A DNA stretch of 64,000 nucleotides from Deltaproteobacteria bacterium (GCA_018668695.1 JABJBS010000322.1:5718-69717); one strand, 5' to 3'. Positions 3 to 59,700 are shown, counted from the first letter of the stretch. The notes: generated by a model not told the origin, from the letters alone. Numbers and translations are program-made.

Positions 3-1453
<1,451 letters not shown>

Positions 1454-9217: not shown

Positions 9218-9778
9218 TTACTTTTGCGTGAAAAGGTCGCGGAGCATCAGCCTCTCTGGCTCTGTCCCAGGTTTCTGGTTTTCAACCTGGACTTGCTGCA
9301 ACGCCTCCTCTGCAGGGCCCAGGGTCCAACAGGATTCAACTTCGAGAGTTTCAAGAAAATCTGGTGAATCATTTTTCGGACAAATATCTCGGTACTCGCC
9401 AAGCTCGCCCGCTTCATCTTCATCGATCCATCGTAGCGGTAGCCCTTGAGAACGGCATACATAGGGCCGGTGCTCGTATATTCGGCAACTGCCTGCATCA
9501 TTTAAAAATGCACACTTACCGACCGGGTGCGGGGTGCCGGACGTCAGAAGGTCACCGTAATGCGCCTTGATAACAACCGCCTCTACCTTAAAAACTGTTA
9601 GCTCGTCTTGGCAACAATCACTGCAACCGTCCCCGCATTTGAGCTGGTTTTCGTGCTCCCAATTCAATGGGTTTAAGGCTGAATCCACGTCGCGGTGGTA
9701 CTGCTCGATGATGGGTAATAGCGTATTATTCAAGTGTGAGCTCCTTGTGCAGCATGGATTTACACAATCACGTTGCAA
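9218..9778 (-). CDS. YkgJ-family zinc/iron-chelating domain protein (CxxCxxCC)
   Basis: CGDGCSDCC ... C.FL...GSCRIYEHRPYVCR pattern matching the putative Fe-S/Zn-chelating domain family. Confidence 0.6.
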   Translation of the reverse strand: MQRDCVNPCCTRSSHLNNTLLPIIEQYHRDVDSALNPLNWEHENQLKCGDGCSDCCQDELTVFKVEAVVIKAHYGDLLTSGTPHPVGKCAFLNDAGSCRIYEHRPYVCRSQGLPLRWIDEDEAGELGEYRDICPKNDSPDFLETLEVESCWTLGPAEEALQQVQVENQKPGTEPERLMLRDLFTQK

Positions 9779-9843
9779 GATCCAGCCAAACTAGGCATCC
9801 TAGACCGATATTCACGGCCACGATGCCCAACCCGAGGTGGAAC

Positions 9844-11025
9844 ATGCGCTCACTAAGTATACTGATTTTATTAGCTTTTCTCTCTTCGTGCGGCTCAGAA
9901 TCAACGCCCGGAACAGATCTTACGGACGTTTCCGCACCTGCCTCAGCTGACCCAGCTGATACCACCGATGCGGCTGATGCCAGTGATGATGTTGAGTCCA
10001 GTGACGCAAGCGATGCTTCAGTGAGCCCAGACCCGAGCTCCGATTCTACAGAAGCTGCCGACTCCGCAGACCCTACAGATGCGGCAGACCCGAGCGAAAC
10101 CAGCGACGCAAGTGACGCGGCAGACCCTGAAGAACCTGTCGACGATGGTATTCTTCGTTTCGTGGTGCTTGGCGATGCCGGTGAAGGAAACCAAAATCAA
10201 TATGACGTTGCCGATGCCATCCAAGAGCTTTGCACTGCTCAAGGGGGGTGCGAGTTTGCGCTTTATCTTGGCGACAACTTTTATGACGACGGAATCAATA
10301 CAGACCTTTGTTTAGACGACCCACAGTTTTTAGAAAAATTCGAATACCCCTACGCCAATCTAGATTTTCCATTTTATGTAGTGGCCGGCAATCACGACTA
10401 TGGCGTGCTGCCAATTGCTTTGGATAAAACAACCTGTGAGGTGGAATACCACCAAGTATCAGAAAAATGGTATTTCCCAGATCGCTATTACACCGTTGAA
10501 GTAGATGACGTGGCACTCTTTGCTGTCGACACCAATATTCTCATGGTCGACCAATTCATCATTGGAGATGTCGATGCGGACGACCAAAAAGCTTGGTTCA
10601 ACCAATCTGTGGCCGAGAACAACTCAATGTGGAAATTTGCATTTGGTCACCATCCCTACTTGTCCAATGGACCACACGGCAATGCTGGCAACTACGAAGG
10701 CTTGCCGGCCTCACTGATTCCAATCGTCAACGGTGATAAAATCCAAGACTTCATTGAAGAGTCCGTCTGCGGAAAAATCGATATTTATTTTTCCGGGCAC
10801 GACCACAGCCGCCAATGGTTCGACAATACCTGTGGAACTGAGTTCGTTGTGTCTGGAGCGGGCTCGAAGACTTCTGAAATCGAAGGCCGTGACAACAACC
10901 CGACCCTGTACAACGATGCCGAACTACCTGGTTTTCTCTACGTTGAGATCGACTCCAACCTGATGGTTGGCCGCTTCTTCGATATCAATGGCGACATGAA
11001 CTTTGAGAGAACTGTCCTCAAATAA
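9844..11025 (+). CDS. Secreted calcineurin-like metallophosphoesterase (purple-acid-phosphatase-like) lipoprotein
   Basis: SD GAGGTGG then ATG. Lipobox LLAFLSSC. About 60-aa D/S/A/T-rich acidic linker. Metallophosphatase motifs GDAGEG, GDNFYDDG, GNHDY, GHHPY, GHDH. Confidence 0.7.
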   Translation: MRSLSILILLAFLSSCGSESTPGTDLTDVSAPASADPADTTDAADASDDVESSDASDASVSPDPSSDSTEAADSADPTDAADPSETSDASDAADPEEPVDDGILRFVVLGDAGEGNQNQYDVADAIQELCTAQGGCEFALYLGDNFYDDGINTDLCLDDPQFLEKFEYPYANLDFPFYVVAGNHDYGVLPIALDKTTCEVEYHQVSEKWYFPDRYYTVEVDDVALFAVDTNILMVDQFIIGDVDADDQKAWFNQSVAENNSMWKFAFGHHPYLSNGPHGNAGNYEGLPASLIPIVNGDKIQDFIEESVCGKIDIYFSGHDHSRQWFDNTCGTEFVVSGAGSKTSEIEGRDNNPTLYNDAELPGFLYVEIDSNLMVGRFFDINGDMNFERTVLK

Positions 11026-12789: not shown

Positions 12790-12836
12790 TCTGTTAACCT
12801 CCTGTGGGACTCAAACATCTGAGTGGGAGACTGGGA

Positions 12837-14015
12837 ATGAAGCGGGCTCAAACAATTTTACTGACAGCATGGCTCGTGCTGGCAGGCAGCGGTTGCGGCG
12901 ATGACCAAGACTTTGTCATTCGGCCAAGCAGCACTGAAAGTTTGTCGCTCTCCCAATCAACCTATGACCACGGATTAAGCCTCAGCCCTCACGCCGTTGC
13001 GTCGTCCACAGCGCTCGGAACGATGCTAGCCAGCGACACGGGGCTTTATCAGCTCAACACCGCCGGCATCACCCTCATCGAAGAGAGTCCGATTGTAGGC
13101 TTGGCTTCCTATGGAGAGGCGTTCATTTACGCCACAGGCTCGTCCATCTCAATTTGGGACGGCTTCATGGTTGACTCCGGGCTCAATGATTTTTTCACTG
13201 ACCCTCAATTCACAGGCCTTGCGGTATTTGGTCAAGATATCTGGATAGCCACGGCTCAAAGCGTATTCTTGCATCAAAGCAGTGCCATGATTGAATTCCC
13301 CGACTTAAGCAATGTCAGTCACTTCTCTAGCTTCTCCAGCTCCAACCAACTTGTTCTTTCCGGCAGCGATGGGTCCACTTATCTCATCGAACATTCAAAT
13401 GGGGATTACTACGGGCAAAGCCTCGCGGATGAGCCCATTTCCAAAGCGCTTATTGGAACTCAAAATAGCATCTTGGCTCACGACAATGGGGCGCTGATGC
13501 AGCGTCTACCCGGCACCACGGAAGATACGGTGAGCTGGCACCCGGTTGCTCTGACCACCAATGAAGAAGATCCCGGTGAGCAAGGCGTGCTGCAAATGCT
13601 AAGTGATCCGCAAACAGGGGCTACTTGGCTAAGAACCGAAAGCGAGCTCAAACGACTCCAGCAAGACAGGGTCTATACCATGGAGCTGCCTTCCGAGGGT
13701 GCAATGCTGATTGGTGTGGCCGACGACGCAAGTGTTTGGCTTTCCGACAACACGGCCATTTATAAACTCGAAGGTGATAATGAACCGGTAACCTTTGCTG
13801 AAAACATCAGTGCATTCGATGAAACAAACTGCGCCGAATGCCATGCACCCGGCGGCCCGGCCCATGAAATTCATACCTATGAACAATGGGTAGCAGAAAT
13901 CGACGAAATTATTGAAGCCATTGAAAGTGGAACCATGCCAGCGGGAGGAAACAAACTCGAAGGCGCAACGGTCCAGCTTCTTTATCAATGGATGGAGGAT
14001 GGCCTACGGCCATAA
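12837..14015 (+). CDS. Lipoprotein with C-terminal cytochrome-c-like (PSCyt1-type) CxxCH domain
   Basis: SD GGGAGA 6 nt before the ATG. Lipobox LAGSGC. C-terminal CAECHAPGG...MPAGGNKL...LYQWMEDG resembles the Planctomycete cytochrome C (PSCyt1) domain. Confidence 0.55.
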   Translation: MKRAQTILLTAWLVLAGSGCGDDQDFVIRPSSTESLSLSQSTYDHGLSLSPHAVASSTALGTMLASDTGLYQLNTAGITLIEESPIVGLASYGEAFIYATGSSISIWDGFMVDSGLNDFFTDPQFTGLAVFGQDIWIATAQSVFLHQSSAMIEFPDLSNVSHFSSFSSSNQLVLSGSDGSTYLIEHSNGDYYGQSLADEPISKALIGTQNSILAHDNGALMQRLPGTTEDTVSWHPVALTTNEEDPGEQGVLQMLSDPQTGATWLRTESELKRLQQDRVYTMELPSEGAMLIGVADDASVWLSDNTAIYKLEGDNEPVTFAENISAFDETNCAECHAPGGPAHEIHTYEQWVAEIDEIIEAIESGTMPAGGNKLEGATVQLLYQWMEDGLRP

Positions 14016-14027
14016 GGAGAGAGTAAT

Positions 14028-15635
14028 ATGCGGCTCACATTATTCATTTTGATATTGAGCACAGCCCTTAGCAGTCCATGCCTGGCTCAAGTGTGCGAAG
14101 AAGATGCACTGCAATCTTCCCTGCAACACCTGCGGCGTCTAAGTATCGACTTAAAGGGGACCCTTCCGAACCTGAATCAATTGGAAGAAGTCATCAATGC
14201 CACGATGGTACCAGATTCCTTGGTCGACGACTTACTCAATTCCGACGCCTTTATCCAAGAGATGCGTAACTACCACCTCCAACTGCTTTGGACGAATATA
14301 TTGTCCCAGAGATTTACGCCCGGTGTCTGGATTTTACGCAAAGGAAACGCCGCAGATGGAACCGACGCCTATTGGCTCAGAGCCAATGGCCGTTCATCGC
14401 GTTATCGGGGTGGTCAAATTCCCTGCAAAGATGAGCCTGCTGAATTTGATACCGAGGGAAATATTCTAACAACCCCCTACCCAGGTGACCCCACCATGCA
14501 GCAAGAAGGCTATGTCGAAGTGGAACCCTGGTGGGCTCCGGGAACCACCGTCAAAGTATGTGCCTTTGATGCTCAAACCAACCTGGAAGGTGCAAACCCA
14601 AGCAACAACAACCCCGACCGTGTGGCCAATTGCTCAAGCCAGGTTGTAGAAACCTGTGGTTGCGGCGAGAATCTTCAGTGGTGCCACGCAAATAACCCAG
14701 CCACCGATAAAATCCTTGCCATCTCTATGGCAGAACAAATGCTGCGTTACATCGACAACATCATTCGAAACGACCGTCCTTACACCGATATCCTTTTGGG
14801 AACGGATGCTGAAATCAACGGTCCCATTTCCCACTGGTTGCAACACCAGACGCAAAACGGTGGCAATATTTTTATTACCAGCAGTGAGCAAAACCACGAC
14901 GTTTTAACCATACCTGCGAACGAAATTTATAATTGGCAAACCATCAACCGCTACGAGCGACATGCCGGCGTGCTCACCATGCCCGGCTTCTTGCTCAAGT
15001 ACCAAACGGACCGCAGCCGGGCCAACCGGTTTCATAACGCGTTTTTGTGCCAAAGCTTCCAAGCACCGGAAGGTGGCATCCCAACCGCCGAGGATAGCTG
15101 TAACGATGAACCCGACCTTCAGGAGCGGTGCGGATGTAAATACTGCCACGCCATGCTTGAGCCTGATGCTGCTCACTGGGGCCGCTGGGCGGAAGCCGGC
15201 ATGATGGCCATGAACGAAGATAAGTTTCCCGTTTTCGACCAAAATTGCGCCGAGGGTCGTAACAATGCCATTTGCCGCCTCTTTTACCTGCAGCCCAATG
15301 AAGCCGGTGATGTGGATAGCAAACTCCAAGATTACATTGGCACTCTCTACCCTTATGTTTTCACTGACACCGAAAGCCAAGACAACATCACTCAAGGGCC
15401 ACGCAAACTTGCCCAGAAAGCCATCGACCGAGGAGACTTCGCCGAATGCACGGTGAAGAAACTTTGGAACTATTTCATGAAAAGGCCGCCCTTAGACTCT
15501 GAAGCAGATCTTATGAGCGCATTGGCCAATGACTTTGCCGGTGACAACTACAATTTTCGCAACCTTGTTAAGCGAATCATCACCCGAGACGAATACATTC
15601 AATCCGAGCGATTCGGCATGGAGGACCCATCATGA
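14028..15635 (+). CDS. Secreted DUF1549 (PSCyt2)-like protein, possibly with a DUF1553-like remainder; contains a second CxxCH
   Basis: Signal peptide. N-terminal RRLSIDLKGTLPNLNQLEEV...LVDDLLNSDAF matches the conserved DUF1549 block (RRxSLDLxGxPPTxEE...LVDxLLxSxxF). CKYCH motif. DUF1800 is an alternative assignment. Confidence 0.5.
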   Translation: MRLTLFILILSTALSSPCLAQVCEEDALQSSLQHLRRLSIDLKGTLPNLNQLEEVINATMVPDSLVDDLLNSDAFIQEMRNYHLQLLWTNILSQRFTPGVWILRKGNAADGTDAYWLRANGRSSRYRGGQIPCKDEPAEFDTEGNILTTPYPGDPTMQQEGYVEVEPWWAPGTTVKVCAFDAQTNLEGANPSNNNPDRVANCSSQVVETCGCGENLQWCHANNPATDKILAISMAEQMLRYIDNIIRNDRPYTDILLGTDAEINGPISHWLQHQTQNGGNIFITSSEQNHDVLTIPANEIYNWQTINRYERHAGVLTMPGFLLKYQTDRSRANRFHNAFLCQSFQAPEGGIPTAEDSCNDEPDLQERCGCKYCHAMLEPDAAHWGRWAEAGMMAMNEDKFPVFDQNCAEGRNNAICRLFYLQPNEAGDVDSKLQDYIGTLYPYVFTDTESQDNITQGPRKLAQKAIDRGDFAECTVKKLWNYFMKRPPLDSEADLMSALANDFAGDNYNFRNLVKRIITRDEYIQSERFGMEDPS

Positions 15636-16258
15636 AAAACCTCTGTATCTTATACGCAATTCTCTTATTCGGATTTTCTCAGAGCGGATGTTCAGACGAC
15701 AGCCTCACCGAGCATCCGAACCAATGGAATGACCTCTTGCCCACAGACCACGGAGCGGTCGATGTTTATCCTCAGGAAGAAATATTCGGTAAGCGCGCCA
15801 GACGCATCTCAGTGGACAATCTAAGGCAGTCCATTCCCCAGCTATTTGATGGAATCAGCTGGACCAATGGAAACGGAAGCCGGAATCAATTCGACCAGCT
15901 CTCCGGAACACTCGGTGAAGCCGATTACCTGAATGTAACCCAAGAAAACACTGAGCCCAGTCCGCTCTTTGCCAAATTTATGGACGACATGGCTGGTCAT
16001 GTATGTGAAAAAGCTCTCGACGGTGACGCCCAGGGAACAAGTCAACACATTGTGATGTACCCAGATGACGTTAATGCCAATTTGAGATTTTTAAGACTCA
16101 AATTCCATGGCATCTATGTACCAGAAGGCTCGAACGATAGCCTCACAGATTTGCGGGCGCTTTATGAAGACATTCTCTCCCTCACCGATGAACCCAAGCA
16201 GGCCTGGTATGGCGTATGTATCGCTATTCTAACTGCTCCAGAACTTATGGCGTACTAA
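15632..16258 (+). CDS. Hypothetical lipoprotein
   Basis: Lipobox LLFGFSQSGC. 4-bp overlap with the upstream gene. No recognisable domain. Confidence 0.5.
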   Translation: MKNLCILYAILLFGFSQSGCSDDSLTEHPNQWNDLLPTDHGAVDVYPQEEIFGKRARRISVDNLRQSIPQLFDGISWTNGNGSRNQFDQLSGTLGEADYLNVTQENTEPSPLFAKFMDDMAGHVCEKALDGDAQGTSQHIVMYPDDVNANLRFLRLKFHGIYVPEGSNDSLTDLRALYEDILSLTDEPKQAWYGVCIAILTAPELMAY

Positions 16259-16268
16259 GAAAGGAATC

Positions 16269-17642
16269 ATGATGATGCATTGGACACGAAGAAGATTCCT
16301 CAAAACATTGGGCCTGGGCACCGCAGCGTTTTCACTCAACGCGCAGTGGATGCCTCAAGCATGGGCAGAAACCGCAAGCTCAAGACGGTTTATTGTTTGC
16401 TACTTCAGCGGCGGGTGGGACACTTTACTTTGCCTAGATCCTCGTAGCCCTGCTGATTTTCCAACCTTTAATCCAGGAAGCCAGACCGTCTACCCCGGTT
16501 ATGAAATGCTCGATGGGAGTTATCCCAGCGATGTTGTCATGCCAGATGCCGCAAGCTACCCACATATGACTTTTGGTCCCGCCATTGGCAACTTTGCTGC
16601 CGCGCATTATCAAAAAAGCTGTATTGTACGTGGTGTCAGTATGAACACGCTTACCCACGGGGTCGGTAGAAATTTCTTTTTAACCGGAAAAGAACCTCGA
16701 GGGTTAGCCGCCAATGGTTCAAGCCTGGGAACGCATACCGCAAGCGCTCAAGGCGAACTGCTGCCTATTCCAAACCTTGCAGCCAATGTATCTGCGTACA
16801 ATGAAGCCGAACCCAAATGGGCAAGCCCTTTAAGCGTCAACAATGTATCCGACCTCATTGCGGTGCTGGACGATGGACCCGATGCACCGGCTGGGGATAT
16901 TCGTGCAGCTCTAGACAGATACCGCAGCACTGCGGTGGACTGTGACCCGGCGCTTTATGACCGTAAAGGCTTTCTCGGCTTTATCCGTGATACACAAACC
17001 AAAGCGCGAGAACTGGTGGCCCAAGAGCTGAGCGGCCGCTTTAAATTCACCAACGGCAGCGACCCTGAAATGGTAGGCATTCGGGCCCGCTACGGTATCC
17101 CCGGGAATATGAGCGGGTCTGGAGCCCAGGCAGCCTTGGCCTATCAAGCTATCAAATACGATATCGCTCAATCGGTGACCATTCAGCTTGCCAGTGGTTT
17201 AGACACCCACGACGAAGATTGGGCAACAGACCACCCGGCCAATCTTCAAGAAGGTTTCAATGCCCTAAGCCAACTGGTTACTGATTTAGAAAATACGCCC
17301 AATCAAGAGGGCGGAACTCTGCTGGATAACACCACCATTCTTTGCTTCAGCGAATTTGGTCGAACGGCAAATATCAATGCTCGGGGAGGCAGAGATCACA
17401 ACTTGAACTCCGCCGCATTGATGCTCGGAGCTGGCGTTCCAAAAGGCGTTGTTATTGGAGGCACTTCAGACAATGGCTTAGGCAGTTACGGTATCAATCC
17501 CGAGACCGGAGCTGTTGTGGACGGTGGTCACGTTCTGACCCCAACCGATATTCATGCTTCGATTATGCAAGCAGCTGGCTTTGATACGGACTATCTTCGG
17601 ACCGAAGGCCTGCCTTGCTTGATGGATACGAGCGAGAACTAG
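16269..17642 (+). CDS. DUF1501-family (sulfatase/alkaline-phosphatase-like) protein with Tat signal
   Basis: Twin-arginine signal RRRFLKTLGLGTAAF. FSGGWDT near the N-terminus and SEFGRT...GGRDHN near the C-terminus are typical DUF1501 blocks. Confidence 0.7.
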   Translation: MMMHWTRRRFLKTLGLGTAAFSLNAQWMPQAWAETASSRRFIVCYFSGGWDTLLCLDPRSPADFPTFNPGSQTVYPGYEMLDGSYPSDVVMPDAASYPHMTFGPAIGNFAAAHYQKSCIVRGVSMNTLTHGVGRNFFLTGKEPRGLAANGSSLGTHTASAQGELLPIPNLAANVSAYNEAEPKWASPLSVNNVSDLIAVLDDGPDAPAGDIRAALDRYRSTAVDCDPALYDRKGFLGFIRDTQTKARELVAQELSGRFKFTNGSDPEMVGIRARYGIPGNMSGSGAQAALAYQAIKYDIAQSVTIQLASGLDTHDEDWATDHPANLQEGFNALSQLVTDLENTPNQEGGTLLDNTTILCFSEFGRTANINARGGRDHNLNSAALMLGAGVPKGVVIGGTSDNGLGSYGINPETGAVVDGGHVLTPTDIHASIMQAAGFDTDYLRTEGLPCLMDTSEN

Positions 17643-17643
17643 G

Positions 17644-17675
17644 CAAAAAAAGGGGCCCCTCCAGGCCCTTTTCTT
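17644..17675. terminator. Bidirectional rho-independent terminator between convergent genes
   Basis: A7 run, GGGCC-CCTCCA-GGCCC hairpin, then TTTTCTT. Serves the + strand operon ending at 17642 and the - strand gene ending at 17707. Confidence 0.6.
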
Positions 17676-20371: not shown

Positions 20372-21055
20372 TCAATCCCAATTAGGAACCGGTCTTCCCG
20401 CCAGCTCATAAAAAAGCGACCCGTCATAAAACTTAGCAAGCCGTTCCCGGGTGAGTACTTGGGTCTCTGTTCCATTTACTTCCATCGGCTCGCCAGCAAT
20501 CTTCAACAAAATAGGTAGTTCGAGCTGCGCCAGCGCGCTGCCGAAGAAGCTTTCTCGATTACGAGTCAGAAAGTCGGAGATTTCATCGCCGTCGAGCGCA
20601 CCATCGTTGTTTTTATCAAAACGAGTAAACAGCTCTTCAAACTTCTTGGGATCAAACTCGCCATTGGCATCGAAAACGTCTGAGTCTGAATCGTGCTTCG
20701 ATTTTTGAATTCGGCTTAAATCGATGGTGAGCGCAGGATAACCAGCAACCATCGACGCAATCACAAAATTAACCGCAGCGGCTCCGGCATAACCCTTGAG
20801 GCCATCCACTCCGAGCTCTGCGAGACGCTCGCGAGATTCCCCTACGGTGATTTTTCCGTTGCCATTGGCATCAAAAAATCCAACGTGTTTAGCCAACGCC
20901 GTCGTTTGATGCTTACCCGGGGATGGGCGTGGGCCTTCGTAGGTGTCGAACGGGGTGGATGCCGGCGATGCCGAGCTGACTGAAGGTTCGGCCGCTGCTG
21001 CGCTTGGTATAAAAGAGGCGGCGTGGGCCGTAGAACTGGATGAGACGATAGGCAT
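20372..21055 (-). CDS. Caleosin-family (plant/fungal peroxygenase-like) EF-hand protein with Ala/Ser/Pro-rich N-terminal extension
   Basis: Collinear with Arabidopsis caleosin: KHVGFFDANGNGKITVGE (EF-hand plus conserved heme His), IQKSKHDSDSDVFDANGEFDP (second conserved His), FYDGSLFYELAG. Second canonical EF loop DKNNDGALDGDE. SD GGAGA 5 nt upstream. Confidence 0.7.
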   Translation of the reverse strand: MPIVSSSSTAHAASFIPSAAAAEPSVSSASPASTPFDTYEGPRPSPGKHQTTALAKHVGFFDANGNGKITVGESRERLAELGVDGLKGYAGAAAVNFVIASMVAGYPALTIDLSRIQKSKHDSDSDVFDANGEFDPKKFEELFTRFDKNNDGALDGDEISDFLTRNRESFFGSALAQLELPILLKIAGEPMEVNGTETQVLTRERLAKFYDGSLFYELAGRPVPNWD

Positions 21056-25389: not shown

Positions 25390-26949
25390 CTACATTCCAC
25401 AGGCCGCATATTCAGTGGCACAGGATGTTTCAAAGCACTGCTCATACGTGGTGCCTGCGCCGGTATTACAAGCATTCTGGCAGGCAGTGTCTCCTGAGCC
25501 GCAGCTACCGGTGCACTCCGTGAAAAAGGCATTCGCCTCATCATAACAGGATTGGTAATTGTCCACTCGGCATCCATACATCGCCTGAAATGAAGCTACG
25601 GCCGTACCTGGTGCACCTACCTGCTGAGTATCAATACAACCTTCCATGGTTTGAGCACATGCCTGAGCGCAATCATCAGTGGTGCAAGCGGCAACACACT
25701 CACTGTGAACAGGGACGCAAACCGCTAGGATGCCCTCGTGTATTTCCACACAGGTTGCATGAGCTTGCGCTGTATTGGTACCCGCGGTTGCCGTAGCCGT
25801 ATCCTCAATACATGCGGCGTATTCTTCGGGGCAAAAATCTTGCTGGCAACGGTAATAGTTTTCAAGAGAGCCCGGCACGTCTACACATTGAACATTGCTA
25901 CACGCTACAAGGCTGTTCATCAAAGCAGTGCCCTGCGAACTCATCACGTTGTAACAACCATCAACACAGCTGTAGAAGGATGTTTCATCCGTTGAGTTTG
26001 CGTAACAACCCTGCACACACGAGTAGCCTTCGCCGCAGGTCGTACCACCGGTAGAACCGCCGGGGTTCGTGCCGCCGCCAGATGTTGAACCGCCGCCGAA
26101 GCATACATTGTACTCAGCCGCGCAAGAACGAGCGAGGCAATCGCGGTACTCCGCTGCATCAACCACCTGTCCATCGCACATTTGCTGACCGCACTGAATG
26201 AGGGAAGTCCATTCACCTCGGGCCTGGCCCGTTGCTCGGTCGTAACAATCTTGGCCACAACTTTGGTTGCCATTGCATGCGTCTTCGCATTCGTAGAGCT
26301 GTGAGCACGAAAGATTGGATGGAGCACTTTCTGAGTTTGAGCCACCGGTATCAGACCCTGAGCCCGTATTGCCCGAAGAGCCATTCCCCGCCTCTTCTGG
26401 CTCGGTCGCAACCCCGCATGTTGAGTACTCCCCATAGCAGGACTCAACCATACATCCTTGAAGCGCATCGTTTGCCTGAGCGCCGCACTGCTGCAAGCAC
26501 GCATCATCTGAGCAGGCCTCAGCACATGGGTTATAGAGTTCCAGGCCTTGATCGTAGCAGCCCTGGTAAACTTCTTCTTCGCAAGCGCGCAGAGCTTCAA
26601 ACTCTGACTGGCCTGCGCCGCTACCCTGCGCAAGCTCTGCGTCGTAACAACTGGTATAGGTCGCCTGGCAAGCGTCAGCGCATGTCTGATCCTCACACGC
26701 TCCTGCACACTCGTAGTAAGAAGAATAACAGACCGACACGGCATTGTAGATTTCCAAACAGCTGGCACCGGCGGCGGTGTCACTTGAGCCGGCCTCGCCA
26801 CTGGGAGCAGTGTCCCCGGTGGGTAACTCAGATCCTTCTGGGCCCGAATAACCATAAGTTCCTGCGGGAGAGCCGCAGCCCATCAAAGCAATCGCCAAAC
26901 AACACGAGAAAAATATAACGGTACAACGAGAGGGCATAGCTGTCTCCAT
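25390..26949 (-). CDS. Cysteine-rich secreted lipoprotein with about three repeated Cys modules
   Basis: Lipobox ALMGCGS. About 70 Cys in 519 aa. Repeats of the CxEIx..C...EC..AC.D..C...C pattern separated by Gly/Ser linkers. Confidence 0.6.
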   Translation of the reverse strand: METAMPSRCTVIFFSCCLAIALMGCGSPAGTYGYSGPEGSELPTGDTAPSGEAGSSDTAAGASCLEIYNAVSVCYSSYYECAGACEDQTCADACQATYTSCYDAELAQGSGAGQSEFEALRACEEEVYQGCYDQGLELYNPCAEACSDDACLQQCGAQANDALQGCMVESCYGEYSTCGVATEPEEAGNGSSGNTGSGSDTGGSNSESAPSNLSCSQLYECEDACNGNQSCGQDCYDRATGQARGEWTSLIQCGQQMCDGQVVDAAEYRDCLARSCAAEYNVCFGGGSTSGGGTNPGGSTGGTTCGEGYSCVQGCYANSTDETSFYSCVDGCYNVMSSQGTALMNSLVACSNVQCVDVPGSLENYYRCQQDFCPEEYAACIEDTATATAGTNTAQAHATCVEIHEGILAVCVPVHSECVAACTTDDCAQACAQTMEGCIDTQQVGAPGTAVASFQAMYGCRVDNYQSCYDEANAFFTECTGSCGSGDTACQNACNTGAGTTYEQCFETSCATEYAACGM

Positions 26950-27847: not shown

Positions 27848-29782
27848 TTAGGCTAAAACTTTAAAAAGCGGCTTTTGAGACTTAACCCCTTTAAGCTCAA
27901 AATCACCGGCGTATTCCGTCTCTTGAAGTAAACCCTCAGCCACGGCTCCAGAGACATAAACCGAACCGGGCTCACACGCTGATTCTATCCGAGCCGCAAT
28001 GTTCACAGTGTGACCAATGGCCGTATAGTCGGCGCGTTTGTCTGAGCCGAAATTACCGACAACCGCCGGGCCTTGATGAATCCCAATTCTCATCGAAAGC
28101 TCGGGATAACCCTTCTCTGCACACCGTTTTGTAAAGACCTGCATCTTCTCTTGCATCGCTAAACCGCAGCTTACCGAGCGCTCACGTTGCTCCTGAGTAC
28201 TCATCGATTTAGGCGCCCCAAAGATGACCATCACCGCGTCGCCAATAAATTTATCGATGGTTCCGCCATGCTCAAAAATCACATCACTCATCACACTTAA
28301 GTAATCATTCAAGAGTTCCGTGATGACCTCTGCACCATACTGCTCACAGGTGGACGTAAATCCTGCCAAGTCCGAAAATAGGATGGTAATGTTACGGCTA
28401 TGGGGTGCTTCATCCATTGTAATCTCTTTAGCCAAGAGTTCATCTACGAGTTGAGGCGGGAGGTAGCGATTCATAATATGGGCAGATAAGAGCTGCTCAG
28501 CTTCGGCATGGTCTTTCTCTTTTTCGAGAACCTGCAGTTTGTCTGCCAAGGCAAAGGAAAGCAGAACAATTTCCGCTGCAGCTCCCAATTGAAATGCATA
28601 ATTTGTGAGAACATTAGCCTCTACCAAACCTACGGTCTTTAAAACGAGGACAGCTTCTCCAATCAATAACATGCCCCACGATGCTAAGTAATAACGTGCA
28701 GGGTGATACCCTTGCCGGACCACACAGAGCGCCGCTGTTATCCAAACAACAATCATACAAACAGCCAACACAACGGTGCTTATGAGAACCACGCGGTTTG
28801 ATAAAACGAAGGCCCCGACCAAAAGGCTCAAAGACAAATAGGTAAGGCCACGTGCTATTAGAGCCAAGCGAGGCAGGCGCTCACGCATTTGCAAGAAAGA
28901 ATAGGTAAATAAGTTTCCGAATAGTGAAAGCGTAATGAGAGCTAGAGAGAGGCCTTGGTTAACCCAGTAAGGAGAGTCCGGCACGAAGAACTCACTCCAG
29001 ATACCATTGCCACAGACCGCCGCCCATCCAAGCGAGAGTACGTAGAACAAATAGTAGAGATGGCTTCGCTCTCGATTAAGAAGATAAATAAAGAGATTGT
29101 AAAAAAAAGTGAGTAAGACAATCCCATAAAACATGCCGATGACCAGCCGAAAGTCCCGCTCAGACTTGCGCAAGGCGTCCAAGGTAAGAACCGCTAATGG
29201 GAGCTGAATGGAGCTTGAGGATTCAACCCTTAAAAGAACAGTGGAGGTCTTTCCGTAGGAGGTCTCGAGTGGGAAAACAAAATTGTGATGTAGAATTGCT
29301 CGGTTGTTAAACGGCAGTATATCGCCGCCGCCTAAGTGCAGCACCCCGCCATCCGCATCGACTTGGTAAAAATCAATTTGGTCTAAATAAGGGTGCCCCA
29401 ACTCCAAGACCCATGTCTTGGCCAAGGGTGTCCTTACGCGAAAGTCAAAACGTAGCCAGTATGCTGACTCACTGAGCCCAAATTGGGGAACCTCTTTGTC
29501 AGCGATCTTCCAAAGCCCTGAACGCACGGGTGACTGGACATCTGAAAGAGTGAAGAGACCTTCTTCGTCCTCGAGCGTGTAGAGATGCCCCAAGAGCGTT
29601 TGCTGCTCCGTTGAACCATCTATAACCAGAGCTTGGGCGAAAACCTGCCCGGGCAAAGCACAAGCTGCCCATACGACAACTAAAAGCTGCAGATAGAGAT
29701 TGGTACTCCTGGGTTCACAAACTGTCTGTCTTGGGTTCACACTTGAGCTTATTGATTTTTCGAGTCGATCCCAAGAGAACAA
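27848..29782 (-). CDS. Receptor-type class III adenylate/guanylate cyclase (7TMR-DISM extracellular and 7TM domains plus CHD)
   Basis: Signal peptide, periplasmic domain, 7 TM helices. C-terminal cyclase domain ILFSDLAGFT...HGGTIDKFIGDAVMVIFGAP...IGIHQGPAVVGNFG. Confidence 0.8.
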   Translation of the reverse strand: MFSWDRLEKSISSSVNPRQTVCEPRSTNLYLQLLVVVWAACALPGQVFAQALVIDGSTEQQTLLGHLYTLEDEEGLFTLSDVQSPVRSGLWKIADKEVPQFGLSESAYWLRFDFRVRTPLAKTWVLELGHPYLDQIDFYQVDADGGVLHLGGGDILPFNNRAILHHNFVFPLETSYGKTSTVLLRVESSSSIQLPLAVLTLDALRKSERDFRLVIGMFYGIVLLTFFYNLFIYLLNRERSHLYYLFYVLSLGWAAVCGNGIWSEFFVPDSPYWVNQGLSLALITLSLFGNLFTYSFLQMRERLPRLALIARGLTYLSLSLLVGAFVLSNRVVLISTVVLAVCMIVVWITAALCVVRQGYHPARYYLASWGMLLIGEAVLVLKTVGLVEANVLTNYAFQLGAAAEIVLLSFALADKLQVLEKEKDHAEAEQLLSAHIMNRYLPPQLVDELLAKEITMDEAPHSRNITILFSDLAGFTSTCEQYGAEVITELLNDYLSVMSDVIFEHGGTIDKFIGDAVMVIFGAPKSMSTQEQRERSVSCGLAMQEKMQVFTKRCAEKGYPELSMRIGIHQGPAVVGNFGSDKRADYTAIGHTVNIAARIESACEPGSVYVSGAVAEGLLQETEYAGDFELKGVKSQKPLFKVLA

Positions 29783-36674: not shown

Positions 36675-36778
36675 CTCAGCGTCCCATTTTGACCTAAAAC
36701 GGTTCAAAGCCTTATGGCATCAGGCTTGCAGTAGTTCATACGAAGACAAGAAACCACGACGCACCAGGGGAGAGAGTG

Positions 36779-48146: not shown

Positions 48147-50231
48147 TCAATCCGGGTCGCAGGCACCATCGCAAGTTTGGCTGATCACACCATCACGAAT
48201 CAAAGTGATGATTTGATTAAAACCAGGCTCACTGAATGTAGCGTCCGAATGGGTGCCATTGTCTTGAGCTGGAACCACTGCTTCATCTGGTGGATAATAC
48301 TCAGCAAGATTTTCCGGCAACGTAAACTGCACCAAAGCCCCGCCGCGGCCAGTATCAGACTGCTCCAGCCCCCAAACATCTTCAACCGCCGGCGTAAGTT
48401 GTACCAAATCGAGATTTCTCGCCAACATGCGGGTGTTTAGGTTGGGCACTTGGCAGTCGCCAATGGCTTCTTGCAAAATTACTTTCGCTTTCAAAGAACC
48501 ATCCTCTTGCTTCATCATATGCGAGAGGTTGATAGGATCTGTAAAATCAAACATACCTTGCAGAAACGAAACAAAGGCAAGCTGAGTGAGTGGATCTGGG
48601 TAAAGCTGATCTACAAACATTTTGATGGGCTGATAGACAACCGAACGCGGAAGCATTGTTGACCAAGCCCCGCCTGGTACCGCGAGTATCGCTCGGTCGA
48701 TGCGATCGGATAAAGACGTGAGAGACGTTCCTTGAATCCCGCCTAAGCTGATTCCGTAATATCCAACCTTCTCGTCGCCAATAAGTGGCGCGTGGGCAAC
48801 CTCCAGTGCTGGGTCAAACTGAAGAGCGCGAATCGTGAGTTCCATCAAAATAACGTTATTGATAAGAGACTGTTGCAAGCGGTCTGTAACCACCGACAAG
48901 CGGTTTAAATCTCCAACGACCTCGCTGATAATCAAGTTGCGATCGCCGCCAGAAAGACCGATCCAGTTGGTAGCAATCACCACAGACTCGGTTGCCTGAG
49001 CCATTGGGTGAGTACGCTCGTAAGCATTCGGGTGGTCGCTGATATAGCCCCAACCTTCACCAAAAATACCGTGACCAATCAACGTGAATCGTAAGTTTCC
49101 TTTTTCGTTGGCAACGGCCGGCGCACCCATCGTGAAGGGGTAATTACACATGCCCTGCATCACGGGGGTACCGTCTTCAGCATAAACAAGCTCGTTGGTC
49201 TCTGTGAGAAAGCACGGTACATCAAACGTGCCTTTAACAATCATCGACATATTTTCGTTGATGTCCCGCTCAATGGACTCGATTTGATAAGAGAAACCGT
49301 TTGCATCGACATAAGCGAGTGCTTGGTCGCGCATCGATTGAACAGGACCAAGAAGATGCTCTTCACTTGCTACAGCAAAATCCCAAGCTAGGAATAAGCC
49401 GGAGCGCTCGTGGCCGTAGTTTTCAAGTGTCGTAAAAAGCTCTTCGTAAGATGCGCGGTGTGCTTCAAGCGCTTCATTGTTCGACGGGCGATTATCTCTT
49501 AGCGCGATAAAGCCAGGTGACTCAGGCAACGGCTGGCCGTCAACATCCAATAAGCCTTTTTCAATCACCACTGCATGGCGGTGACCCATGGACATTGGCT
49601 TCATGGGACGAACAATCAAGGCAAAGCGGTCTTCAACATCACTTAAGTCTCGCAGGTTCGCATCCATCTCCAACATAAAAGGAAGTGAATCACCGGTGGT
49701 CAGATCGATCAGGTGGACTTTCTGTTCATCGGAGAGAGAGTCTCCAATATTGGATTGATCAATCAAAAACTCAGGCGCAACATCGACACCAAAGTGCAGA
49801 AGAATCGGCATGGCCGGCGAGGCGCCATCTGCGCGGTTGTAGCGGTCAAAGTTGACCGGCATTTCACCGGTAGGAAGCGCGAGGCCCTCTTGCTTATAGT
49901 CCCAGCGAACACCTGTGGGTGACGAGATATCCTCTCGCTCAAAAAATCGGCTCGGGATAGGAAACAAACATTCACGAGTCGACGCGATGGGGTTACAGCC
50001 TGGCTCAACATTCACTTCGATGGGCTCGGCTTGCTCCACCTCTGGCTCAGTTTCAGTATCATCACCGGGCGTAGTACCATTATTTTGTGGCTCGGAGGGT
50101 TCTGTTGTGGTCGATGGGTCACCCACCGGCTCTCCTGTATGACTTGGCTCAGAGCTAGTACAAGCGCCAAGAAGCCCGCATGAGGCAACCAACAAGAGAA
50201 CGACTGATAGATTCAGGTGTAACTTTTTCAT
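48147..50231 (-). CDS. Secreted lipase/esterase-like alpha/beta-hydrolase lipoprotein, paralogous to the 1862..4150 product
   Basis: Lipobox LLLVASCGLLGAC, acidic linker. FPIPSRFF motif as in the paralog. GISLGG nucleophile elbow. Confidence 0.6.
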   Translation of the reverse strand: MKKLHLNLSVVLLLVASCGLLGACTSSEPSHTGEPVGDPSTTTEPSEPQNNGTTPGDDTETEPEVEQAEPIEVNVEPGCNPIASTRECLFPIPSRFFEREDISSPTGVRWDYKQEGLALPTGEMPVNFDRYNRADGASPAMPILLHFGVDVAPEFLIDQSNIGDSLSDEQKVHLIDLTTGDSLPFMLEMDANLRDLSDVEDRFALIVRPMKPMSMGHRHAVVIEKGLLDVDGQPLPESPGFIALRDNRPSNNEALEAHRASYEELFTTLENYGHERSGLFLAWDFAVASEEHLLGPVQSMRDQALAYVDANGFSYQIESIERDINENMSMIVKGTFDVPCFLTETNELVYAEDGTPVMQGMCNYPFTMGAPAVANEKGNLRFTLIGHGIFGEGWGYISDHPNAYERTHPMAQATESVVIATNWIGLSGGDRNLIISEVVGDLNRLSVVTDRLQQSLINNVILMELTIRALQFDPALEVAHAPLIGDEKVGYYGISLGGIQGTSLTSLSDRIDRAILAVPGGAWSTMLPRSVVYQPIKMFVDQLYPDPLTQLAFVSFLQGMFDFTDPINLSHMMKQEDGSLKAKVILQEAIGDCQVPNLNTRMLARNLDLVQLTPAVEDVWGLEQSDTGRGGALVQFTLPENLAEYYPPDEAVVPAQDNGTHSDATFSEPGFNQIITLIRDGVISQTCDGACDPD

Positions 50232-50662
50232 GGGCGGAATATCTAAGTTAGAACACGTTCTAGTCAATCCAGAAATGTCATGAGGAGTCTTGGAATTGCG
50301 CACCTCTCAACATCTTCGCAAGATCCTAAAATGACGAAACGATAAGTAGGACAGAAGTTTTCGCCCTAGTTTTTTGCGGCCACAAATTCAACGTTTTCTA
50401 AAATCGGTTGCATTTCGACCACTTAAAAATCTACCCCACAGTAAGATGCTAACAAGTCGGCGGCGTACTCGATGCTTGGCCGAGAAATGGCCCATTTTGG
50501 TACGCTTATTTGTCCCAAAATCAAATCGTAAGATCTACTTTTGTAAGCGAAGGTGAGGCTTCAGGGATGGGGAAACTCAAGAACGTAGTCTGCGGAACTG
50601 CGCTCCTTGATGCCTACTTTTAGCTGGTGAGAAGAAGGCATGGAGCCAGTGAACATTTCGCT

Positions 50663-56700: not shown

Positions 56701-59700
56701 CTATTCCAAGCTTCCTGTGAGCAAGAGATAGCCGTCACCTGGGTCACGCTCGATAGATGAATTGGTAAGTTCCCAGATCGTTCCAGGCGGTACTACGCCC
56801 TCGCCCGCTAAAGCGGCAAGGTCAAATGCTGGAATCGGGAATGCTCCCAATGTTTCACCGAGTAAGTTCGGAATCAAAAGCTCCAAGATCTTGGCGAGTA
56901 AGTCGCTCATCACACCTTGGTAGCCTACGTCATCAATTTGAACCACTTCAATGTAAGCGCTGTAATCGTCGTTAACGAGCAGCTGCAACTGATTCGTGGT
57001 TGGATCGATATCGATGGACCCGCCAACAATGGTGGAGAGATAAGCACCTATATTGAGTACGCCCACGCCATCGGTCGATGGTTCAGAGCCGAGTAGGCCC
57101 GCAATATCAATCTGAGCTTCAATCCAAACATCACCAAGACCAATATCCACTTCGTAACCAGAACGCCCTGGCATGAGCACAGGAGGCAGCTCCGCATTAA
57201 ACGATAAACTCACCACGTCACTGAAGTCATCGTCCCCGCCAGAGCCCAGTTGGCCAACCGTTTCCATCAAGTTGTCAAAGCTTAAACCGCCGCCATACCA
57301 CATAGCCCAGAGTACCTGGTTAACCATTTCATCCTTCAAACCAATCCCGAAGTTATAATCGGTTCGGCTAAAGGCAGGCATGGTGCTCTCTCGTTTAAGT
57401 GAGCCGCGTGCATCGTTGGCAATCATATCGCCTTGAGTGCTTGGATAGAGCTGAGTACCGAGACCAATTTCGCCGTAACCTGGCTGACCGTTGAATGAAC
57501 CTTGGAACTCCGCGTGGTCCAAAGCACTTGCCACGTTAAGCGTCATGTCGATCGGCTCAGGAATGTCGAAACCGTTGTCTAAGATAAAACCGCTCAGTAA
57601 ATCTTCCATCGTGTCTGAAAGCGTGTCGCGTAGGGCATCGGAAATGGCATCCACCAACTGGTCTTCAACGAGTGGAACTACAATGTCGGTAACAATATCG
57701 CAGAGGAAATCTAAGATGCCGCAATCAAGGTTTACGTAAAGACCAGAGGTTTGAACGTTAAGAGAGCTCAGCTCAACTTGAGGCTGCCCATTAACAACAT
57801 CAATATTTAGCGTGGCGTCCACATCGGCGTTGCTTAGGCCAACCCAGCCGTTCACACCGATTTCTGCAGGTCCAACGCCGCTGATTCCAGCACACACAAT
57901 AAGTGCGCCATAGGCATAAATTGGAAAGTCAAAATCGGAAACCGTCATACTCAATTCCATGCCGCCATCGATGGCCTTCATGTAATTGATCCAAGGACCC
58001 GCCACATTGATCTGGCGATTCGCGTTGGGGTCGCGCCCAACCCAATAGCCTGTATCACTCGTAAACTCGAACCAGCTGCATGAAGATGGGCTTAAGGAGT
58101 CTTGCGCGAAGGCTGTTCCCGGAGGCGCAATCTCGTTGAAGTCGATGTACTGAAGAACCACTTCACCCAAGGTCGCCAAATCGTCGACATCGCTTCGGTC
58201 GTAGTCATCAATGATTGGCTGGTTCATGTGGGCGATGATGCCTTGGTCAGCCACCGAACTGTTACTCGTAGAGGTCAACGCCGGGTAATACTCTGGGCTT
58301 CGCAAATACGACTGAGCAATCACACGCCTGTTGCCACATTCATCTACCGCTTCACCATTAACAATCGTAAGACCCCAGCGGCTGTCTTGTGGCTGCGAAA
58401 AGTTTTCCGACGTACTCGCACCGCTGACGCTCAAATCAGTATTGTTGATGGAAAGTGCGGTCACGAAACTTAGAGAGTCATTGACGCTACCGTTAACCCA
58501 AATTTGTTGATCGCCATTTCCACCAGACTGCAGCATTTCTGCGCGGTTCGGTGAGTCCACCACAATCCTCGGAGGGGTTGAATCAACCCGCACGTTCAGG
58601 GCGAAGGGTTCAATGGTACTTTCTGGATGCTGCTCGCTTAGGACCTCAACCGTTAAGTCGTAATCCGCTTCTGCCTGAAGCCGGTAGGTACCGTCTCCCA
58701 TGGCTACAAAGCCATCTTCGGGAACCGATGTGACTTGCACCGAAACGTTGGGAACAACGTTGCCCCAGTAATCGTACACAACCCAATCAATTGGGATATT
58801 GCGGTCTTGCCAAAAACAGTCTTGGTCTAGAGCATCCACGCCCCACGAGAAAGGAAGGCCGGGAACGACCGTCACAATCGCCGGAGACTCATCCCCGCCC
58901 GTATAACCAGGTGTTGTACAGTGAACCCAGTACTGTCCGGTAACCGTCGCGCTGAAATCCATGTCACCCATCACGAGGCCGTCATACGAAGCACCCATCG
59001 CAGCCGAAGGCACCACGGTCACGCTCGTTGTAACACCCTCAAGCGGGTTGCCGTATGAGTCGGTATAGGTACAGCTCACGCCCACGACCTCAGTGGGAGA
59101 AACAACATCTGCGGTAATCGTCGTCTGACTTTGCGCCGGGAATCCTGGCAAAACAGTAAGCTGCTCTGGCGTAACATCAACCACACCATTGGCAAGCTCA
59201 CACGCCACCGGATAAGTCCCCACGAGGGTTCCGCGCAAAACATACTGGCTGGCGATTCCAAGATGGCGTTCAACAATTGGGTCCGTCGCAATTTCAATAT
59301 CGCGTACGTTCAGAGAGGTTTCGTTGCCATAAGCATCAAACATCTGGCAATCCACACCGACGGCTACGCCCGCAACTGCACTCGTCGCATCTAGCCGAGT
59401 TTCCACCGCCACAGGCTCGCCCGGCTCAACGGTGAATTTATCACCCGAGATATCGGTCACTGCACCATCGCTTGTTCCGCAAAAAACGATGTATTCGCCC
59501 ACCGCGGTTGGCGTGATCGTAAAGCGGTCACTCGATTCACTCAGGACTTCAATCACTGGTGCCACACGAGCGGTTAGCTCCAGCGCAGCCGCGGCCACTC
59601 CATCCTGCACACCCAGCAGCTCACATTGCACCTGCACAACGTCGCCAGCCTGGACGTAAGGGTTCAGGACCGTTGTTGTCACGCTCCAGCTGCTGCGGTC

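Follow-up and report, generated by a model that had tools for sequence, protein, structure and literature searches.

Proteins built from PSCyt and PSD domains, together with their DUF1501 or DUF1552 partners, belong to a system that has been described since 2004-2012 and is still uncharacterised. In the Planctomycetes-Verrucomicrobia-Chlamydiae (PVC) bacteria, a four-gene form comprises genes for a DUF1501 protein, a signal-peptide protein, a PSCyt1/Big_2/PSCyt2/PSD1 protein and a PSCyt1/WD40 protein, its function being unknown (Kamneva et al. 2012, PMC3542564); the signal-peptide protein shows a weak PPC match (PMC3542564). Pairs of DUF1592-type and DUF1552 proteins have also been described (He et al. 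2017, PMC5615132), and the descriptions of these modules state that nothing is known of their function (PMC3542564, 2012; PMC5615132, 2017). Here we analysed a stretch of 64,000 nucleotides from Deltaproteobacteria bacterium (GCA_018668695.1 JABJBS010000322.1:5718-69717; hereafter the window), where four head-to-tail genes on the plus strand, g1 to g4, span positions 12837-17642. An initial annotation had read them as a planctomycete-type PSCyt1/DUF1549/DUF1501 system split into four genes. Our results lead us to consider it likely that g1-g4 encode an extracytoplasmic, membrane-tethered unit representing a third, compact lineage of the PSCyt/PSD + DUF1501/DUF1552 superfamily, typical of Myxococcota, while any specific chemistry proposed for this unit is doubtful at best.

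As canonical comparators we used annotated plasmid loci (L087, L090-L095), which were checked with Pfam; the canonical pairs and four-gene clusters occur in Planctomycetota, Verrucomicrobiota, Bacteroidota and marine Gammaproteobacteria. Singulisphaera encodes PSCyt1-PSCyt2-PSD1 proteins of 1018 and 815 amino acids (aa), each followed by a DUF1501 gene. In Catenovulum, Chondrinema, Haliscomenobacter and Saccharobesus, the DUF1553 proteins are 779-1125 aa long and are likewise followed by DUF1501, except in Haliscomenobacter (L094), which has DUF1501 upstream of DUF1553 and possesses a PSCyt1 protein but no propeller. The clusters L090, L091 and L093 additionally encode an NHL/6-bladed propeller protein and a PSCyt1 protein; in the fetched examples, this annotated propeller is the counterpart of the PVC signal-peptide protein. 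Two accessory PSCyt1 proteins were scanned, and both contained leucine-rich repeats, with a weak membrane domain in one of them.

The cluster g1-g4 resembles the PSCyt1-PSCyt2-PSD1 + DUF1501 system in its DUF1501 partner with a signal for twin-arginine translocation (Tat) and in its probable PSCyt1-type cytochrome c domain. It also shares the RRxxLDLxGxxP helix motif at the N-terminus, the signature CxxCHx3[DE]P and the helical region corresponding to the start of PSD1. Unlike in the canonical systems, the body is divided between two genes (535 + 208 aa) instead of forming one protein of 780-1125 aa, and no carbohydrate-binding modules occur in g1-g4. The cluster departs from the PVC four-gene DUF1501 module as defined (PMC3542564) in that g2 and g3 replace the giant protein and no NHL/PPC protein is encoded. 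With the PVC four-gene versions that include a propeller and a membrane-anchored PSCyt1 protein, it has analogous parts in another architecture.

To place g2, the window protein was subjected to hmmscan, and its scores were compared with the gathering cut-off of each family (Table 1). PSD2 is the only Pfam family passed, whereas PSCyt2, PSD1, DUF1800 and PSCyt3 all remain below their cut-offs. The initial annotation had taken g2 for a DUF1549 protein and left the choice between DUF1549 and DUF1800 to such a search; neither reached its threshold (25.1 bits against 29.8, and 13.2 bits), but the N-terminal part of the assignment held, residues 28-89 aligning to the start of canonical PSCyt2 (hhalign 89.7%, E=1.8e-6). 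The PSCyt2 match covers only the first ~40% of the model, whereas the canonical proteins score 252-280 bits over the full model, compared to 25.1 for g2. Among 30 g2 relatives, both PSD2 and PSCyt2 were matched in 28, DUF1800 in 19, PSD4 in 14, PSD1 in 11 and PSCyt3 in 5. Similarity to DUF1800, assessed by its Pfam model only, was weak and C-terminal in these 19/30 relatives (best E=1.9e-6), g2 itself remaining at 13.2 bits against the cut-off of 26.1. The g2-family consensus gave 37.8 bits for PSCyt2 (model positions 7-92 only), 33.9 for PSD2 and 20.6 for DUF1800.

Further profile alignments linked g2 to PSD1 and to the DUF1592-type lineage. Residues 469-530 aligned to the start of canonical PSD1 (Saccharobesus 485-558; hhalign 84%, E=7e-6), and residues 227-523 to the PSD4(end)-PSCyt3-PSD2 part of two Myxococcota DUF1592-type proteins over 240 columns, with the CxxCH motifs aligned (77%, E=2e-5). 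The signature C-x-x-C-H-x3-[DE]-P is common to canonical PSCyt2 (7/8 proteins, as CARCHDHKYDP), PSCyt3 (2/2, as CASCHQLMDP) and the g2 family (111/111, as CKYCHAMLEP in g2). Judged by sequence, the N-terminus of g2 is homologous to the start of PSCyt2 and its last ~300 residues to PSD4(end)-PSCyt3-PSD2, equivalent to the start of PSD1. The N-terminal helix motif, which is PSCyt2-like, is predicted to be followed by an insert rich in cysteine and beta structure, then by the CxxCH region, which is PSCyt3-like, and finally by PSD2 at the C-terminus. Since g2 appears to be about equally distant from the PSCyt2/PSD1 and PSCyt3/PSD2 lineages, and since the canonical proteins score ten times higher on their own models, we regard it as a probable third-lineage protein and not as a DUF1549 member.

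Unlike the canonical proteins, g2 lacks a PSCyt1 domain, scores below the thresholds of PSCyt2, PSD1 and DUF1800 and contains the Cys-rich insert. The similarity to the DUF1592-type (PSD3-PSD5-PSD4-PSCyt3-PSD2) + DUF1552 (HXXSHH) pairs, for which L071 1245-4696 and L084 586-4346 served as examples, consists in the collinearity of the last ~300 residues of g2 with PSD4(end)-PSCyt3-PSD2, in the fact that g2 passes PSD2, and in the DUF1552 matches of about half of the g4 family. However, g2 has no PSD3, PSD5 or carbohydrate-binding module, the partner is by score a DUF1501 protein (82 bits), not DUF1552, and g1 and g3 are extra genes without counterpart. The DUF1800 + DUF1501 pairs of Proteobacteria and Actinobacteria (PMC5122149) show the same two-gene logic of a helical partner and a Tat-DUF1501 enzyme.

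Both of the CxxCH motifs indicated by the initial annotation, one in g1 and one in g2, proved conserved. Every g2-family protein has exactly one CxxCH (n=111), and C370, C373, H374, E378 and P379 are all invariant; 13 further cysteines of g2 are mostly conserved. The signal peptide of g2 is Sec-type (...CLA/QVCE), and its N-terminus carries the RRLSIDLKGTLP...LVDDLL motif. The AlphaFold2 model of g2, with a predicted local distance difference test score (pLDDT) of 94.6 and a predicted template modelling score of 0.90, has a helical N-terminus, a strand-rich part (~100-205) and a helical C-terminal half, in which CxxCH opens the helix 371-384. The Cys-rich, beta-rich insert comprises ~130 residues and has no canonical counterpart.

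The product of g1 starts with the lipoprotein-type signal MKRAQTILLTAWLVLAGSGC with lipobox Cys20. Downstream of its CAECH motif, it carries the tail GTMPAGGNKL...WMEDG, where Met367 (in GTMP) is the probable axial haem ligand. The last 92 residues matched Cytochrome_CBB3 with 29.2 bits (cut-off 27). The initial annotation had assigned this C-terminus to PSCyt1; hmmscan gave no PSCyt1 (PF07635) match for g1 even at E<=10, but the assignment is supported by a profile of 54 proteins occupying the g1 position in related loci, whose match in canonical PSCyt1-PSCyt2-PSD1 proteins was their N-terminal PSCyt1 domain (hhalign 96.6%, E=6e-10). The same profile aligned to PSCyt1 of the accessory "c-type cytochrome domain-containing" proteins (94%, E=1e-7), and BLASTP of g1 against the Singulisphaera PSCyt1 domain gave E=7e-5. 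We therefore interpret the C-terminus of g1 (~315-392) as a PSCyt1-like mono-haem cytochrome c domain with a predicted haem. In at least 54 of 78 loci, g2 is preceded by a gene whose product has a C-terminal cytochrome c domain; the proteins concerned have CxxCH 58-81 residues before the C-terminus and the MP motif, and several apparent absences of g1 were wrong-frame picks of open reading frames (ORFs) in loci of high guanine-cytosine (GC) content.

Residues ~44-310 of g1 are repetitive, with off-diagonal self-hhalign matches at shifts of ~78 (E=2.4e-10) and ~157 (E=2.4e-7). The recurring pattern "G.lW.a...gL" and weak WD40 matches suggest a beta-propeller-like domain. This N-terminal part of the g1-position proteins diverges fast between loci. 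By its composition, g1 appears to be closer to the separate PSCyt1/WD40 accessory protein of PVC clusters (PMC3542564) than to a piece excised from a giant protein; unlike that accessory protein, it fuses the cytochrome and the repeat domain in the reverse order within one lipoprotein.

The prerequisites of c-type cytochromes at the sequence level, namely a signal peptide and a conserved CxxCH, are present in both g1 and g2. Even so, the CxxCH of g2 might be metal-binding or structural, in which case the cluster would encode a hydrolytic or transferase machine with g2 and g3 binding the substrate and g1 as an independent, loosely associated cytochrome. The motif is always followed by [DE]-P, and the canonical CxxCHDHKxDP could bind a metal; the 13 further cysteines of g2 point to a disulfide-rich fold, g2 is unlike any cytochrome fold in the PDB, and g1 was undetected upstream in about a quarter of the loci. 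However, CxxCH in a Sec-exported protein is a standard substrate for haem attachment, and in the predicted model the g2 motif opens a helix, just as CxxCH stands at a helix start in c-type cytochromes. Moreover, most loci have a genuine cytochrome c domain encoded immediately before g2, and canonical systems carry such a domain within the giant protein itself; some of the apparent g1 absences are ORF-calling artefacts in high-GC loci. We thus consider a system without redox function to be possible, though rather doubtful.

The product of g4 matched DUF1501 (PF07394) with 82.2 bits (E=5.5e-23, cut-off 27) at model positions 3-370 of 390. It has the twin-arginine motif TRRRFLK at residues 6-12 and passed TIGR01409 (18.4 bits, cut-off 16.7), in full agreement with its earlier description as a Tat-DUF1501 protein. 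The RR motif occurs in 73 of 78 g4 homologues. The alignment of g4 with 35 homologues from Myxococcota and with 8 canonical DUF1501 proteins showed R7 and R8 to be invariant, as are D57, H130, T139-G140, D312, H314, E362-F363, R365 and G374-R375-D376-H377. The motif SEFGRT...GGRDHN is present, and GGWDT is lineage-specific, canonical DUF1501 proteins having GGPS at the same position. Additional matches in the g4 family were DUF1552/HXXSHH in 23 of 44 proteins (best 6.8e-8) and faint ones to Phosphodiest (4) and Sulfatase (2). We conclude that g4 is a Tat-signal DUF1501 protein, putatively of a phosphatase/sulfatase-like type, its Asp/His-rich invariant set being common with canonical DUF1501. 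DUF1501 is presumably part of the alkaline-phosphatase superfamily in the Pfam clan classification.

The small g3 protein has lipobox Cys20, a variable linker and a conserved helical domain of ~155 residues with the motifs ARRxSVDQLRRSIPxLFxG, FAKFMDDMA, NLRFLRLKxHG and the C-terminal VCxAxLTAPExxxY. No Pfam or NCBIfam family was matched by the protein, 63 relatives or their consensus, PSD1/DUF1553 (PF07587, cut-off 28.5 bits) giving no match for g3; the sole traces in the 63 relatives were PSD5 in 3 (E>=0.059) and PSD3 in 1. The search of 1.84 billion representatives (a 50%-identity library) with a g3 profile yielded 581 matches, the best 150 of which are all 112-360 aa long and include no fused forms. 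The AlphaFold2 model (pLDDT 83) has an all-helical core, and hhalign of g3 against g2 was non-significant (2.5% probability).

Residues 53-207 of g3 aligned collinearly to the C-terminal ~200 residues of canonical proteins (residues 571-778 of the 779 in Saccharobesus), with E=0.024 for a broad g3 profile of 340 sequences and 0.093 for a narrower one. In this hhalign alignment with PSD1, RRLxxxQLR falls on the PSD1 "RRLxAExxRD", and both C-termini coincide. Furthermore, a hidden Markov model of the canonical PSD1 C-terminal module was used to rank all 4374 ORFs with a length of 100 aa or more in the Myxococcota loci and the window. It placed 9 g3 ORFs in the top 50 (0.95 expected) and 25 in the top 200 (3.8 expected), compared to 1 and 2 for a reversed-profile control, although the g3 ORFs are mutually related and not independent, so that the evidence is weaker than nominal p-values imply. 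The segments matched lie in collinear order. On the Saccharobesus protein, the g2 alignment ends at residue 558, and that of the conserved g3 part starts at 571. Because the collinear alignment and the rank enrichment agree with this meeting of the g2 end and the g3 start at one canonical point, we favour, on balance, the view that g3 corresponds to the C-terminal module of PSD1. Equating g3 with the PSD3+PSD5 N-terminal module of DUF1592-type proteins was also tried and dropped (hhalign E=0.28-0.39, non-significant).

These data bear on the literal fission of a canonical PSCyt1-PSCyt2-PSD1 protein, by which g1 would be PSCyt1, g2 would be PSCyt2 with the first part of PSD1, and g3 would be the rest, beside DUF1501. 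The gene order is indeed the domain order, g1 matches PSCyt1 (E=6e-10), g2 matches the start of PSCyt2 at one end and that of PSD1 at the other, and g3 is collinear with the rest of PSD1, with the g2/g3 break at a single point there. Yet g2 is as near to PSCyt3/PSD2 as to PSCyt2/PSD1, its PSCyt2 score is 25 bits compared to 250-280 in canonical proteins, and its ~130-residue Cys-rich, beta-rich region has no canonical counterpart; g1 carries a lipobox and an additional repeat domain of ~270 residues, g3 has a separate signal peptide, and the g4 family also matches DUF1552. The arrangement is also old and widespread, with homologues down to 33% identity, and the direction of change is ambiguous, as separate genes could equally be ancestral and fused later. 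A literal fission is therefore unlikely. The split suggested by the initial annotation holds as far as g2 and g3 appear to map on either side of one point in PSD1, but not in view of the PSD2-lineage affinity of g2, the repeat domain of g1 and the age of the arrangement; membership in the PSCyt/PSD + DUF1501 superfamily is upheld by the g4 scores and by the profile alignments of g1 and g2.

The distribution of the cluster was followed through g2. The family comprises 598 clusters at 90% identity, which, where named, are "DUF1585", "DUF1549 domain-containing" or "hypothetical" proteins from metagenome-assembled genomes (MAGs) of Deltaproteobacteria or Myxococcota. Relatives of g2 are encoded on 152 stretches (GTDB contigs, one genome per species). 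Among the best 80 of these, those with an informative taxon label almost all belong to Myxococcota sensu lato, including Myxococcales, Polyangiales, Sandaracinaceae, Archangiaceae and Bradymonadia; only a bin labelled Bdellovibrionales falls outside them. Among 86 Myxococcota loci searched by tblastn, wherever the sequence was long enough, g2, g3 and g4 stand in the same order, with g3 and g4 immediately 3' of g2. The order and the tight spacing persist at 33-50% identity, with homologues down to 33%, and the 4-nt overlap of g2 and g3 recurs in loci at 35-42% identity. No conserved flanking genes outside the four were seen in the gene tables inspected, and since the flanks differ between genomes, the cluster appears self-contained. 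Some MAGs have two or three diverged paralogous copies (e.g., L019/L054/L065, L021/L026, L020/L027, L036/L078), recalling the PSCyt paralogue expansions of Planctomycetota. The arrangement had been thought unusual in a Myxococcota-like genome; on the contrary, given 152 species genomes, 598 g2 clusters and within-genome paralogues, it is common there, as well as old and conserved, without any sign of recent splitting or transfer. That the four genes are chance neighbours, or functionally unrelated secreted proteins, is hardly credible: nothing observed speaks for it, whereas order and tight spacing are kept in dozens of genomes at 33-50% identity despite unrelated flanks, the g2/g3 stop and start codons overlap, and a single terminator-like site follows g4.

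Besides the mutual relatedness of the g3 ORFs, several results weigh against our preferred view of g1-g4 as a membrane-tethered third lineage. The g3-PSD1 link is statistically weak (HHsuite probability 2%), and Foldseek found no match for the g3 model in the PDB. For g2, Foldseek of the model revealed no fold relative in the PDB (best E=1.4), PDB sequence and profile searches gave nothing, and no conserved candidate for a second axial haem ligand was assignable. The comparison of the g1 repeats with the NHL/6-bladed propellers of canonical clusters was non-significant (hhalign E=0.12). The affiliation of g4 with the alkaline-phosphatase superfamily is backed by weak matches only (Sulfatase 0.0075, Phosphodiest 0.097), and its PDB sequence and profile searches matched only the Tat signal of FdhA. 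As the comparison of g4 with the NPP-type enzyme (nucleotide pyrophosphatase/phosphodiesterase) of the same window gave only E=0.058 in hhalign, its catalytic residues are not assignable by homology. Finally, no experimental study of any superfamily member was found in the searchable literature, so that we infer haem binding, complex formation and electron transfer.

With these reservations, g1-g4 as a third-lineage unit may be envisaged as follows. The g2 and g3 proteins would correspond to the PSCyt2-PSD1 body of the planctomycete giants, broken inside PSD1. The g4 protein would be a metal-dependent enzyme of the alkaline-phosphatase superfamily, folded and loaded with metal in the cytoplasm before Tat export, and g2, with g3, would serve as its obligate partner or substrate-binding subunit, by analogy with the PSCyt2-PSD1, PSCyt3-PSD2 and DUF1800 proteins and their DUF1501/DUF1552 partners. 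The lipid anchors of g1 and g3 could tether the assembly to a membrane, where the haem of g1 would relay electrons to or from that of g2, thereby coupling an ester- or glycan-processing reaction at g4/g2 to a periplasmic electron-transfer chain. The fast-evolving N-terminal repeat domain of g1, along with the paralogues, suggests substrate-specific copies. Canonical systems in other phyla contain carbohydrate-binding modules and have glycoside hydrolases, TonB-dependent receptors and sugar transporters as neighbours (also PMC5615132), which makes the processing of modified glycans the best guess for the superfamily; around the Myxococcota cluster itself, a glycan-type gene context was not found.

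In the window, the four genes form one operon ready for co-transcription, closed by a terminator-like site. All four ORFs of the initial annotation were found, tightly packed and in an order that is syntenic across related loci, and all of its motifs were present: CAECH and the MP tail in g1, the DUF1549-like signature and CKYCH in g2, GGWDT and SEFGRT...GGRDHN in g4, and the lipobox of each lipoprotein, g1 and g3. Its spacings of 13, -4 and 11 nt were correct for the overlap, but the other two were each off by one: as read from the DNA, g1/g2 are 12 nt apart, g2/g3 overlap by 4 nt (ATGA) and g3/g4 are 10 nt apart. Motifs resembling ribosome-binding sites, GGAGAG, GGAGGA and AAAGGA, stand just 5' of the g2, g3 and g4 starts, respectively. 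The g1 start was set at the ATG because GGGAG precedes it; an alternative GTG at 12804 is likewise open, and a public protein 100% identical to g1 also has 392 aa. All four products are predicted to be exported, g1 and g3 as lipoproteins, g2 by the Sec and g4 by the Tat pathway. The GC content is flat over the operon region (0.505-0.515; 0.46-0.54 in the whole window) and thus does not point to recent horizontal acquisition. No second copy of the four-gene system occurs elsewhere in the 64-kb window.

Table 1. Features of the g1-g4 operon in the window and Pfam matches of g2
Feature	Position	Strand	Remark
g1	12837-14015	+	ORF, 392 aa counted from ATG
g2	14028-15635	+	ORF, 535 aa
g3	15632-16258	+	ORF, 208 aa
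g4	16269-17642	+	ORF, 457 aa
g1 haem-attachment motif CAECH (C332-H336)	13830-13844	+	read from translation
g2 CKYCH (C370, C373, H374), then E378-P379	15135-15149	+	invariant in 111/111 family members
Terminator-like GC hairpin and T run	17649-17672	+ (readable on both strands)	directly 3' of g4 stop
PSD2/DUF1585 (PF07624)	g2 457-521		32.4 bits, cut-off 25.8; model 7-72 of 74
PSCyt2/DUF1549 (PF07583)	g2 31-87		25.1 bits, cut-off 29.8; model 23-81 of 209
DUF1800 (PF08811)	g2 471-527		13.2 bits, cut-off 26.1; model 241-294 of 419
PSD1/DUF1553 (PF07587)	g2 491-528		11.9 bits, cut-off 28.5; model 49-86 of 244
PSCyt3/DUF1588	g2 313-391		12.5 bits, cut-off 27; model 2-92 of 98

The upstream neighbour of the operon is murJ, ending at 12757, and the gene downstream of the hairpin is convergent. 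Two genes upstream of the operon, 9736-11025 (+) encodes a calcineurin-like metallophosphoesterase with a probable lipoprotein signal after ~37 leading residues and then a long Asp/Ser/Ala/Pro-rich low-complexity linker; in the gene tables inspected for other loci, it does not recur beside the cluster. At 20372-21055 (-), a member of the caleosin family with an EF-hand is encoded (Pfam Caleosin E=3.5e-30); this family is known above all for haem peroxygenases of plants and fungi, and a bacterial copy is uncommon. The NPP-type phosphodiesterase/sulfatase-clan enzyme encoded at 41456-43015 (-) (Phosphodiest E=2e-23) is fused to a Vps62-like domain. For the large ORFs at 56701-59802 (-), 48147-50303 (-) and 25390-26949 (-), of 1033, 718 and 519 aa, Pfam gave no match at E<=1e-5. 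At 36776-39760 (+) lies the gene of a STAND-type protein in which an adenylate cyclase is joined to NB-ARC and TPR domains, and at 27848-29782 (-) that of a 7TMR-DISM receptor fused to a cyclase. Both architectures are typical of Myxococcota-like genomes, in agreement with the Myxococcota-like origin guessed in the initial annotation.

Other loci provided further observations on gene context. In L071 (1005-4696) and L084 (586-4346), a DUF1592-type protein (PSD3-CBM60-PSD5-PSD4-PSCyt3-PSD2) and its DUF1552 partner are encoded directly upstream of the g2-g3-g4 homologues, so that two different PSCyt/PSD systems stand there in tandem. In L073 (1-1317), only the DUF1552 gene of such a pair is found on the contig, at the contig end upstream of the cluster. 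In Saccharobesus litoralis (L087, 6710-7938), genes for cytochrome c' and cytochrome b follow the canonical DUF1549/1553-DUF1501 pair, with a 141-aa hypothetical gene between, and may hint at a link to membrane electron transfer; this cluster is flanked by a GH88 gene upstream and by LamG and TonB-dependent receptor genes downstream.

Public databases already list the proteins of the cluster, labelled as hypothetical, DUF1585 or DUF1549. In the searchable literature, we found no account of the conserved Myxococcota four-gene form or of the g3 family, of g2 and g4 standing between the DUF1549/1501 and DUF1592/1552 lineages, or of a g2/g3 break mapped inside PSD1, and no functional study of PSCyt/PSD or DUF1501/DUF1552 proteins. 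Our comparison suggests that the DUF1549/1553, DUF1592-type and DUF1800 lineages, the latter compared by Pfam model only, form one superfamily around a CxxCHx3[DE]P core and a movable helical module.

Few families of unknown function are as strongly expanded in Planctomycetota and Verrucomicrobiota as PSCyt/PSD and DUF1501/DUF1552, which are also common in marine polysaccharide degraders. The Myxococcota version presents the same parts as four small separate proteins and thereby offers a naturally dissected model of a very abundant system, in which haem binding, subunit contacts and enzyme activity are easier to test than on fusions of 800-1100 aa; its 535-aa g2 core has a very confidently predicted fold without a solved relative. 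It is conceivable, though quite improbable, that a haem c within the novel fold of g2 takes part directly in catalysis with the Tat-exported bimetal g4, the cluster being a minimal, dissected PSCyt/PSD-DUF1501 machine in which g3 is the detachable PSD1 C-terminal module acting as a lipid anchor or adaptor. If this were true, g1-g4 would represent a periplasmic enzyme of a new class, coupled to the respiratory chain and active on esterified or glycan substrates.

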